A DNA stretch of 64,000 nt from Enterobacillus tribolii. Its GTDB lineage: Bacteria; Pseudomonadota; Gammaproteobacteria; Enterobacterales; Enterobacteriaceae. Location of the stretch: NCBI RefSeq assembly GCF_003363015.1, contig NZ_QRAP01000005.1:330820-394819 (forward strand), read 5' to 3'. The notes below the pieces were generated by a model, which did no database searches, was not told the origin of the DNA, and saw only the letters and a program-made list of their open reading frames with translations. The position numbers and the translations under genes are program-made. Positions 59,733 to 61,364 of the stretch are shown here, in pieces. Position 1 is the first letter of the stretch, and the number at the start of each line of letters is the position of its first letter.

Positions 59733-60683
59733 CTATTCATTGATGAAATACAATGAATGCGCATGCCACAATAACCAGTCGGCCGGATGGCGGGTTATTG
59801 ACTCTTCAATAATGACCGGCATTTTCTTTTTCAACTCGCGGGCCGCAACCGGCGGCTCAATGTGAATTTTGATGCCTTTGTCGTAATACAGGTTGTAAAA
59901 CACCACCTGCGCCGACAGCACCCTGGCCAGCCGGATAATGCCGCTGTGCAAATGCGCAGGGCGGTTGAACAGGGTACAGTTCAGCTTGCCGGCCCGGGTT
60001 TCGTTGGTATCCAGGGTATAGTCCGGCGTGATGTCGGGAAAAATCATGATATTGCGCTGGTGGTCGGCGGCTTCCATGATGGAATCCATCAGGTTGCCGG
60101 CAATCATCCGGTTGTCACTGTGGATTGAGCAGTAAGTGAGGTTGACCCCGCCCATGGCGCGATCCTGCTCCTGATAAATCTCCGCGCTGGAAGACACCAC
60201 CACCGTGGCCTTCCCCGGATAAACCATGCTGCCGACGATGCCGGCCAGAATGTCCGATACCATGTGCATCGGCGCCAGGATCACCGGGGAGCCGTTCTGA
60301 TGCAGCGGTTCTACGATCTGATTAAGCTGATCGGCGCACTGCTTCAGTTCAGACTGGATCTGAGCGCTTTGCCCGTAGGTTGCGGCCAGGTCCAGCAGTT
60401 GCCGGCGCTGGGACACCCACGTATGACGCAACGGGGCCGCATCCGGCCCCAGCAAGCATCTTTTATTCTCTTCGGCCACCAGCGCCAGGTTGCGCCGGCG
60501 GCGCCCTGTCAGCCGCAGCCCGCGGCTGATGTGCGCCAGCAGAAACCCGGCGCGGTAGTCCAGGTGACGAAAGAGAAAACGGGCGGTTTTGCCGTGCCAC
60601 TCACGTGACTTGCCGACCTGTTCAGCCAGTTTCCCGGTGAAGTTTTTCCAGCTGAGATACAGCCACACGGCAAAGAAACGCAT
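59733..60683 (-). CDS. LpxL/HtrB-family (lipid A late acyltransferase-like) ACP-dependent acyltransferase
   Basis: 316 aa. Motif blocks parallel LpxL: HMVSDILAG (LpxL HFMSLELGG, HX4D/E region), FPDITPDY (LpxL APDQDY), and C-terminal PADWLLWHAHSLYF (LpxL PEQYLWIHRRFK). Confidence 0.6.
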   Translation of the reverse strand: MRFFAVWLYLSWKNFTGKLAEQVGKSREWHGKTARFLFRHLDYRAGFLLAHISRGLRLTGRRRRNLALVAEENKRCLLGPDAAPLRHTWVSQRRQLLDLAATYGQSAQIQSELKQCADQLNQIVEPLHQNGSPVILAPMHMVSDILAGIVGSMVYPGKATVVVSSSAEIYQEQDRAMGGVNLTYCSIHSDNRMIAGNLMDSIMEAADHQRNIMIFPDITPDYTLDTNETRAGKLNCTLFNRPAHLHSGIIRLARVLSAQVVFYNLYYDKGIKIHIEPPVAARELKKKMPVIIEESITRHPADWLLWHAHSLYFINE

Positions 60684-61364
60684 TTACTTCTCCAGTGACT
60701 TATCGTGTTGCAACAGCGACAGCAACTGATCGGCAAACGCCGGATATTTACGGTCCTGCAGGGCAACCCATTTCTTATTAACGATGAAGCTCGGCGTAGC
60801 TTTAATGTCGTAGTACGCGGAAACGTCCGCCATATACTTCAGCAGATCCTTGGCTTCCTGGGATTCGCTGGCTTTGTTATAGGCATCAACGTCGATACCG
60901 ATTTTCTTCAGCCAGAGCTCACGGGTGGTGGCATCGCTGATATCCAGCTTGTCTTTGATCACCGCGTCGTAGGCTTTATCGCGATATTGCTTTTCAATCC
61001 CCATCACCGACAGCGTGGCGAATATGCCGCTGTAGCGCGACAGACCGCTGCTGGAGCGGTTGAGGTGCAGGTAAACAATTTTGGTCCCTTGCGGCATACG
61101 GGCGCTGAGATCGTTAATATGCGGCTCATTCAGCGCACAGTAATGGCAACCGTAAGAGAAGAATTCAATGATAGTATTTGCTTCTTTAATTGGGCTTTCA
61201 TCAACCTTGCTCTGGCTAACCTGAATAAGGTCCTGATGAGGTTCAATATTCTCAGCCTTGCTACCCAATACGAAATTATTACTGATATAGGTAGTTGTAA
61301 TTACCGCAGATATTACGGCAACCACAATGGTATAAAGTAAAATAACAAGCGACTTTTTGAACAT
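60684..61364 (-). CDS. membrane-anchored DsbA-like thiol:disulfide oxidoreductase (bacteriocin accessory thioredoxin, PedC-like role)
   Basis: 226 aa with an N-terminal TM helix and a thioredoxin-fold CxxC active site (FFSYGCHYCALNE). AT-rich codon usage. Confidence 0.7.
   Translation of the reverse strand: MFKKSLVILLYTIVVAVISAVITTTYISNNFVLGSKAENIEPHQDLIQVSQSKVDESPIKEANTIIEFFSYGCHYCALNEPHINDLSARMPQGTKIVYLHLNRSSSGLSRYSGIFATLSVMGIEKQYRDKAYDAVIKDKLDISDATTRELWLKKIGIDVDAYNKASESQEAKDLLKYMADVSAYYDIKATPSFIVNKKWVALQDRKYPAFADQLLSLLQHDKSLEK

Follow-up and report, generated by a model that had tools for sequence, protein, structure and literature searches.

Several described systems share parts with the locus examined here. 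Class II microcins are exemplified by microcin V (MccV; CvaC/CvaAB-TolC), the export of STII enterotoxin involves Sec, DsbA, and MacAB-TolC, and the rhizobial AcpXL-FabZXL-FabF1XL/F2XL-LpxXL cluster, which serves the very-long-chain acylation of lipid A, brings together a private acyl carrier protein (ACP), a ketosynthase (KS), a dehydratase, and a transferase of the LpxL family. We analyzed a stretch of 64,000 nucleotides from Enterobacillus tribolii (GCF_003363015.1, contig NZ_QRAP01000005.1, positions 330,820 to 394,819; hereafter, the window), which carries an 11-gene cassette encoding a double-glycine precursor peptide, followed by a DsbA-family protein and an acyltransferase of 316 residues. 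Our preferred interpretation, to which we assign a probability of about 0.5, is that the cassette produces and exports a ribosomal peptide carrying a lipid and disulfide bonds, with the latter two genes as tailoring components.

Fatty-acylated peptides that are ribosomally synthesized and then modified post-translationally (RiPPs), namely selidamides, lipolanthines, goadvionins, lipoavitides, and aphotorhaptins, were all GNAT-based in a 2026 survey (PMC13647313). Lipoavitide clusters carry non-modular fatty acid synthase (FAS) genes, GdvG needs an ACP-bound donor, and the diacylglycerol RiPPs (DAG-RiPPs) are lipidated by the Lgt/Lsp/Lnt lipoprotein pathway (PMC8784127, PMC13647313, bioRxiv 10.1101/2023.10.25.564083, PMC13056109). 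The present locus resembles the fatty-acylated RiPPs in its Gly-Gly type leader, its fatty-acid/polyketide genes, and an acyltransferase that would join both halves. It differs in the LPLAT fold of that enzyme, the absence of any other class-defining RiPP maturase, its Enterobacterales/Burkholderiales hosts, and its relay of MacAB and an outer-membrane factor (OMF). In the Aat system of enteroaggregative and enterotoxigenic E. coli, AatD acylates Gly1 of CexE/Aap and AatPABC exports the product (PMC7943197). A dedicated acyltransferase together with a MacB/Lol-like ABC transporter, an adaptor, and a TolC-like channel is common to both systems. However, AatD is a periplasm-facing Lnt enzyme of the nitrilase fold that uses phospholipid donors on a Sec substrate with an N-terminal Gly (PMC7943197), whereas the window enzyme has the LPLAT fold, would be cytoplasmic and probably ACP-dependent, and accompanies a double-glycine leader with a C39 exporter; the overlap is limited to the MacB/OMF part.

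The cassette has the components of a double-glycine system, a Gly-Gly leader and a C39 ABC exporter with its catalytic Cys. The 15-residue leader, the exporter, and a disulfide-bonded core of ~50 residues are shared with class II microcins, and MacAB-type expulsion of a DsbA-folded periplasmic peptide would be shared with STII. Unlike these systems, the cassette has an anionic core, a dedicated DsbA, and a lipid-synthesis module, and contains no conserved small immunity open reading frame (ORF) and no CvaA/HlyD-type adaptor. The rhizobial cluster lacks a peptide, a C39 exporter, DsbA, and MacAB-OMF and has lipid A as its acceptor, whereas here the peptide and exporter are the constant partners, and ACP and KS are dispensable in Herbaspirillum. 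A full-text literature search (including DUF4762, and PF03279 with bacteriocin) returned no description of the cassette, although absence there is not proof. It is possibly the first lipidated ribosomal peptide system with an LPLAT-fold enzyme.

The acyltransferase family and its gene associations

The two tailoring candidates and the precursor region comprise the following features:

59733-60683, minus strand: LPLAT-fold (LpxL/PatA-like) acyltransferase, 316 residues (PF03279, predicted fold, invariant blocks)
60684-61364, minus strand: membrane-anchored thiol:disulfide oxidoreductase of the DsbA family, 226 residues (PF01323, CHYC, ATPSF, N-terminal hydrophobic segment)
61488-61526, minus strand: 16-bp stem-loop and T-rich tail in the spacer that separates dsbA from the peptide gene (hairpin scan)
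61580-61774, minus strand: precursor peptide, 64 residues, with a 15-residue double-glycine leader and a 49-residue core containing five Cys (PF15959 DUF4762, E 3.9e-10)

The ORFs of the acyltransferase and DsbA genes abut as TAAATG, exactly where a first-pass annotation of the same DNA had placed them. That annotation had read the 316-residue protein as LpxL-like from three motif blocks, HMVSDILAG, FPDITPDY, and WLLWHAHSLYF. The protein matched PF03279 (Lip_A_acyltrans) with an E-value of 6.7e-5 and 22.7 bits, marginally above the gathering score of 22.3, and only some members of its family carry a precomputed PF03279 match. No NCBIfam family was matched at E ≤ 0.01, including the LpxL/LpxM/LpxP equivalog models. 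Searches of the PDB with the sequence and with a family profile returned nothing meaningful, and only a fold search was informative. The AlphaFold2 model (predicted local distance difference test [pLDDT] 81.3; predicted template modeling score 0.81) retrieved PatA in Foldseek with an E-value of 2e-9 (template modeling score 0.66, target-normalized), followed by LpxM (2e-8) and glycerol-3-phosphate acyltransferases (GPAT), and the model displays the GPAT/LPLAT alpha-beta fold. In public databases, the peptide is labeled 'DUF4762 family protein', and the labels given to the acyltransferase are 'ABC transporter' and 'lauroyl/myristoyl acyltransferase'.

Single-sequence profile alignment with E. 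coli K-12 LpxL by hhalign gave an E-value of 0.28, which alone is not significant. The alignment is nevertheless in register: His140 falls on the catalytic His (GIHFLTLELG), FPDITPDY on YAPDH--DYG, and DWLLWH on QYMWLH. The three blocks are thus real and the LpxL-like reading held. The family blocks H140-x-V-S-D144, F215-P-D-I-x-P-D/E, and W303-x-x-W-H are invariant. Although the enterobacterial acyltransferases are 43-68% identical to the window protein, His140, Ser143, Asp144, FPD, and WxxWH do not vary among them, as one expects of a conserved active site. The window enzyme shares with LpxL/LpxM and PatA the LPLAT/GPAT fold and the catalytic His, P-D...D-Y, and W..H blocks aligned with E. 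coli LpxL, but is only 12-15% identical to these proteins, has an HX3D motif, and lacks their N-terminal transmembrane helix. Sequence and model together indicate that it is a real member of the LpxL/PatA-type acyltransferases. Neither a transmembrane helix nor a signal peptide was predicted and no hydrophobic 19-residue window was found at the N-terminus; the Kyte-Doolittle maximum of 1.6, at residue 134, lies within the core sheet. The enzyme is predicted to be soluble or peripheral on the cytoplasmic side. The co-encoded ACP makes acyl-ACP the likely donor.

The cassette consists of 11 genes on the minus strand, most of which overlap or are ≤25 nt apart, in the order peptide, hairpin, DsbA, acyltransferase, C39 ABC exporter, MacA, MacB, NodT, KS, dehydratase, ACP, and reductase. 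The private ACP, KS, dehydratase, and reductase that the first-pass annotation had noted downstream are in the same operon, beginning 6.7 kb away. That annotation had overlooked two points: MacAB-NodT and the C39 exporter are part of this conserved unit as well, and precursor-less cassettes exist.

Homologs of the acyltransferase formed about 150 clusters, all from Enterobacterales. We compared 86 enterobacterial loci: those whose gene context was read in Yersinia mollaretii, Pantoea ananatis, and Erwinia tasmaniensis, and 80 species-level loci from a genome scan; hosts included Yersinia, Pantoea, Erwinia, Serratia, Rahnella, Klebsiella, Citrobacter, Providencia, and others. The same peptide-to-reductase gene order was present in all 86 loci, far beyond chance, and the flanks were unrelated, indicating that the cassette is an independent unit. 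The DUF4762 precursor was detected with a hidden Markov model (HMM) in 83 loci, and one of the three exceptions was a truncated contig. None of the 86 was a lipopolysaccharide (LPS) locus, and neither LPS genes nor a small gene of immunity type was conserved with the acyltransferase. In the Serratia plymuthica/marcescens group, the dehydratase and reductase are absent and the KS and ACP are kept.

A search of 1.84 billion representative proteins with the family profile gave only 80 matches, so the clade is small and specialized. We read the distant contexts of members scoring 35-190 bits. A Pandoraea sp. locus encodes a double-glycine (GG) peptide, ACP, KS, acyltransferase, C39 exporter, adaptor, MacB, and channel. 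A contig of 66% GC encodes a homologous two-Cys peptide with ACP, KS, acyltransferase, and C39 exporter, and contigs of 32-35% GC have a 49-residue GG-peptide with the same four partners plus a phosphopantetheinyl transferase (PPTase). One short contig carries a GG-peptide, the acyltransferase, and a C39 exporter. Herbaspirillum sp. CF444 has a 52-residue GG-peptide, a divergent acyltransferase, an HlyD-type adaptor, an exporter, and a channel, with no ACP, KS, or MacB. Two loci (L091 and L097), both on contigs ending near the cluster, have the acyltransferase, a C39-type exporter, an adaptor, MacB, and a channel, with no recognizable peptide. The C39 exporter thus accompanied the clade in every context recovered and a double-glycine peptide in most, and these precursors fall into at least three families unrelated to one another. 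H-x-x-S-D, FPD, and WxxWH are kept in the distant enzymes, the Herbaspirillum outlier excepted. In contrast to LpxL/LpxM, members of the clade are always found beside a C39 exporter, and none is found in LPS surroundings.

The analysis establishes what the proteins are, how the operon is built, and that the genes are strictly associated from lineage to lineage. The first-pass annotation had held that its reading would fall if the protein lacked an LpxL-family HMM match or if its orthologs always stood in LPS loci unlinked to peptides. Instead, the HMM match is present, and a double-glycine peptide and C39 exporter accompany the enzyme at 83 of the 86 enterobacterial loci as well as in betaproteobacterial and metagenomic relatives. 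The gene association argues, at slightly better than even odds, that the peptide would be the acylated substrate.

The precursor peptide and its dedicated DsbA

The precursor gene lies 215 nt upstream of dsbA. Its leader, MKKINMIEAMQVVGG, ends in VVGG, and all 65 distinct leaders seen were 15 residues long. The window core is anionic (pI 4.4) and carries a C-x-D-K-x-G motif. Among 80 distinct cores, four Cys and D-K-x-G were conserved in at least 90%, and Thr made up 16% of residues. Position +1 was Thr in 55 and Cys in 10 of the 80. The only invariant nucleophile other than Cys is the Lys of C-x-D-K-x-G. AlphaFold2 predicted a three-stranded sheet (pLDDT 73) with this Lys in the turn between strands 2 and 3, and the model had no significant fold match in the PDB. 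Lipidation of an N-terminal Cys, as in lipoproteins, was rejected as a general mechanism because of the small number of cores with Cys at +1.

An odd number of Cys (five) was observed in 36 of the 80 cores, including that of the window, with the extra Cys at most two residues past Gly-Gly in a C-x-x-x-C or T-C-K-x-T-C arrangement. The fifth Cys would imply either that one thiol stays free or that it takes part in an intermolecular or thioester bond. Precursor genes occur in tandem, as two diverged copies, in Enterobacteriaceae bacterium LSJC7, a metagenome-assembled genome, and Tenebrionibacter (L050, L052, and L057; about 8800-9250).

A 60-nt segment at the hairpin between the peptide gene and dsbA folds at -26.3 kcal/mol. 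Among other loci, 70 of 77 distinct peptide-dsbA spacers reached ≤-20 kcal/mol, compared with 1 of 77 shuffle means, suggesting a terminator- or attenuator-like element. A hairpin in this place is the usual means by which a precursor is expressed above the level of its processing genes. No Rfam family was matched anywhere in the window, hairpin included. A perfect 12-bp inverted repeat (TACATTGCTATA N8 TATAGCAATGTA; 61967-61998, minus strand) lies ~190 nt upstream of the precursor start within an 800-nt AT-rich non-coding stretch and could be an operator for a regulator.

The DsbA-family protein, which contains FFSYGCHYCALNE, matched PF01323 (E 7.5e-12) and PF13462 (E 1.8e-6) and has a CHYC active site and the T-P cis-Pro loop ATPSF. 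Its N-terminal segment reaches a mean Kyte-Doolittle hydropathy of 2.62 over the 19 residues starting at residue 6, indicating that the protein is membrane-anchored or exported. The CxxC motif is kept in 80 of 81 loci, as CHYC in 71 and as other variants in nine. Scores of 45 and 40 bits against the NCBIfam housekeeping DsbA equivalogs fall below the cut-offs of 290 and 279, indicating that this is a dedicated paralog and not the housekeeping DsbA. The first-pass annotation had likened the CxxC protein to PedC-type bacteriocin accessory thioredoxins. Its assignment as an anchored DsbA-family oxidoreductase stands, but the PedC/BrcD model TIGR01295 was absent among its NCBIfam matches at E ≤ 0.01, leaving the PedC likeness as an analogy of position and function only.

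The presence of DsbA varied with the number of Cys in the peptide. All 77 distinct cores with four to six Cys came from loci with DsbA, and every locus with a two-Cys peptide lacked it. The cassettes of Rahnella inusitata and R. woolbedingensis have no DsbA and their peptides have only two Cys; none of the distant loci has DsbA, and their peptides contain two or three Cys. This co-variation, which reflects few independent evolutionary events, supports the view that DsbA would oxidize the conserved Cys of the peptide, and the predicted oxidative folding gains weight from it.

Proposed pathway and competing explanations

The chemistry of the path is inferred from the encoded proteins. The FabF-like KS would load or extend a cellular acyl chain on the private ACP, and the reductase and dehydratase, where present, would process the beta-keto group to the 3-hydroxy or 2-enoyl stage. 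Since the window cassette contains no enoyl reductase, the chain would probably end as the 3-hydroxy or 2-enoyl form. The LPLAT-fold enzyme, with His140 as the base, would then act in the cytoplasm and pass the acyl group from ACP to a precursor side chain while the leader is still attached. Candidate acceptors are a Ser/Thr hydroxyl, as in the usual LPLAT chemistry, or the Lys of the C-x-D-K-x-G turn. Judging from its domains, the C39 ABC exporter would cleave after Gly-Gly and move the 49-residue core to the periplasmic face, where the anchored DsbA would form two disulfides, a step consistent with the co-variation described above. Finally, MacAB-NodT would work in a LolCDE/Aat-like manner on the lipid-tailed product, taking it out of the inner membrane or periplasm and expelling it, and would probably also protect the producer.

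Several observations weigh against acylation of the peptide. We know of no LPLAT-fold enzyme that acylates a peptide; the characterized LpxL, LpxM, PatA, and PlsC act on lipid or glycolipid hydroxyls. The invariant acid Asp144 lies at +4 from His140 and not at +5, giving HX3D in place of the canonical HX4D/E. No Ser or Thr was invariant among the 80 distinct cores, so no acceptor site can be named. Cassettes without a precursor occur in Rahnella laticis (copy 2), in Chimaeribacter (with only a remnant leader), and as two variants on E. coli IncF plasmids, and no DUF4762 peptide was found at E ≤ 1 on any PLSDB plasmid. In a mirror-tree/partial Mantel analysis of 61 loci, the acyltransferase and peptide showed a partial r of 0.08, compared with 0.26 for MacB, the highest value, and 0.18 for NodT; the analysis was non-discriminating. 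The MacB and NodT values are at best a weak hint that the pump may contact the peptide.

One alternative is that the acyltransferase and ACP/KS module acylate an envelope lipid of the producer (lipid A, a lysophospholipid, or a glycolipid), for self-protection or as a co-exported lipid, and that the peptide leaves through the C39 transporter as an unmodified, disulfide-bonded microcin-like product. The lipid acceptors of all characterized LPLAT-fold enzymes favor it, with PatA and LpxM as the nearest folds, as does the combination of private ACP, KS, dehydratase, and LpxL-type transferase, which is the architecture of rhizobial very-long-chain lipid A synthesis. The cassette also lacks a dedicated immunity gene, and its precursor-less copies stay intact on E. 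coli plasmids, as orphan immunity loci would. However, the clade was found only beside C39 exporters and nearly always with double-glycine peptides, in both Gamma- and Betaproteobacteria and with differing peptide families. The minimal clusters of peptide, ACP, KS, LPLAT enzyme, and peptidase-containing ABC transporter, with or without PPTase, look biosynthetic and not like immunity loci, and the enzyme neither matches an LpxL/LpxM/LpxP equivalog nor occurs in an LPS locus. We regard this explanation as unlikely.

The invariance of His140, Ser143, Asp144, FPD, and WxxWH in the enterobacterial members and the company of ACP and KS in distant lineages speak against another proposal, in which the cassette is an efflux/resistance and secretion device, the HX3D protein is an inactive acyltransferase-like chaperone or adaptor presenting the precursor, and the FAS-like genes make an unrelated lipid or signal. 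The displacement of the catalytic acid by one position relative to LpxL, the marginal Pfam score, and the highest residual co-variation with the peptide core in MacB and NodT, not in the acyltransferase, are in its favor. PatA, however, reportedly also pairs its His with a non-canonical acid (the PDB 5F2T work), and a conserved active-site pattern makes a pseudoenzyme highly improbable. A further variant accepts acylation of the peptide but places it on the N-terminus exposed once the leader is cut off, instead of on a precursor side chain; lipolanthines, goadvionins, lipoavitides, and Aat offer the model. All known RiPP lipopeptides except selidamides are acylated in this way (PMC13647313), and the prevalence of Thr (55/80) or Cys (10/80) at +1 would suit it. 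Yet the +1 residue is not invariant, and C39 leader cleavage is coupled to export; with a cytoplasmic enzyme using acyl-ACP and an N-terminus freed during export, the two would be in different compartments. N-terminal acylation is therefore disfavored, and we consider it improbable.

We give roughly even odds to a broader reading, in which the cassette would found a class of ribosomal lipopeptides of its own ('lipo-microcins'): an LpxL/PatA-fold enzyme would acylate a double-glycine-leader peptide from ACP, and the product would leave through the relay of C39 exporter, dedicated DsbA, and MacAB-OMF. Such a class would span Enterobacterales (including the Klebsiella oxytoca complex, Citrobacter rodentium, Yersinia, and Serratia) and Burkholderiales. 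If the peptide is acylated, GNATs and the lipoprotein pathway would be joined by a third enzyme-based way of making ribosomal lipopeptides, and the peptide would be both the first of its kind among LPLAT substrates and the first lipidated peptide of microcin type. It would also assign a role to DUF4762 and to genes misleadingly annotated 'ABC transporter', and offer a concrete model for the handling of lipid-tailed peptides by MacB-type pumps. Lipopeptide engineering could use an acylation module that is gene-encoded and fed by ACP. The hosts, among them Pantoea, Serratia, Yersinia, Citrobacter rodentium, the Klebsiella oxytoca group, and E. coli with IncF plasmids, matter in medicine and agriculture.

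Export and fatty-acid genes and the surroundings of the cassette

The remaining genes of the window cassette are as follows:

57551-59710, minus strand: peptidase-containing (C39) ABC transporter (PF03412 E 6e-24, PF00664, PF00005)
56372-57538, minus strand: MacA-type periplasmic adaptor, the sole adaptor of the cassette (NF008606 E 1.5e-86, 291 bits, below the 342-bit cut-off)
54411-56369, minus strand: MacB-type ABC transporter with ATPase, periplasmic core, and FtsX permease (PF12704 E 2.4e-35, PF02687)
53008-54408, minus strand: NodT-family outer-membrane channel lipoprotein with lipobox LLTGC (TIGR01845 E 3.9e-76, above cut-off)
51756-53015, minus strand: FabF-like elongating ketosynthase (PF00109, PF02801; TIGR03150 376 bits, below the 494-bit cut-off)
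50938-51759, minus strand: MaoC/HadB-like hot-dog dehydratase (PF01575 E 4.6e-7)
50659-50919, minus strand: dedicated acyl carrier protein with DSL motif, Ser39 (PF00550 E 9.7e-10)
49928-50701, minus strand: FabG-like 3-oxoacyl-ACP reductase of the short-chain dehydrogenase/reductase family (PF13561 E 7.8e-56; TIGR01830 233 bits, below cut-off; YGATK motif)

The C39 domain of the exporter has Cys17 in NECGLAC and its His in GASHYVVL. Where the Asp of the triad is usual, it has an Asn (VMNPAIG, residues ~100-110), which the distant relative L087 shares (VLNPATG), giving a papain-like Cys-His-Asn arrangement. MacB scored 733 bits against NF007826, below the cut-off of 966. The Cys-His-His triad of the KS is intact (Cys168 in ACATG, His309 in HGTST, and the His of GHL at 345-347), and its score below the TIGR03150 cut-off marks it as a paralog and not the housekeeping FabF. 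The reductase probably starts at the ATG at 50662, which overlaps the ACP stop codon as ATGA. The window cassette contains no malonyl transferase and no immunity-like gene, and no GNAT or nitrilase/Lnt domain was found by Pfam in its proteins.

The cassette is intact from DsbA to the reductase, with no precursor gene, on about 10 plasmids of E. coli isolated from poultry, swine, and humans, and the whole cassette was present in 9 of 5,426 complete E. coli genomes. With so few carriers, the identification of these copies with the ets locus of ColV plasmids was rejected. The two precursor-less IncF variants (L092, AP026505.1; L093, CP070400.1), which come from poultry and swine, are 89% identical, with all ten other genes intact. 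Insertion sequence elements adjoin the upstream region of the plasmid cassettes, and the plasmid DsbA site is CKYC. These copies may be an orphan resistance/immunity locus or decaying copies of the cassette.

An ECF-type sigma factor (206 residues) overlaps a 168-residue ORF with no Pfam match directly downstream of the cassette (48628-49703, minus strand); the latter may encode an anti-sigma factor. On the other side (62607-63869, minus strand) lies an FKBP-type peptidyl-prolyl isomerase (PF01346 and PF00254) with an N-terminal array of ~33-residue repeats rich in Q/E/K/T, found among the other loci only in Pluralibacter gergoviae (L007, 67% identity). These three genes were considered as cassette members and rejected, because they are not conserved neighbors. 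A low-GC island (0.41, compared with ~0.59 around it) occupies 40001-42000 of the window and includes a 330-residue ORF (40262-41254, minus strand) without a Pfam match. In Yersinia mollaretii (L001/L002) and Erwinia tasmaniensis (L005/L006), which represent unrelated genera, a chaperone-usher fimbrial operon lies directly upstream of the precursor, which may be a coincidence or may reflect a shared surface-related island.

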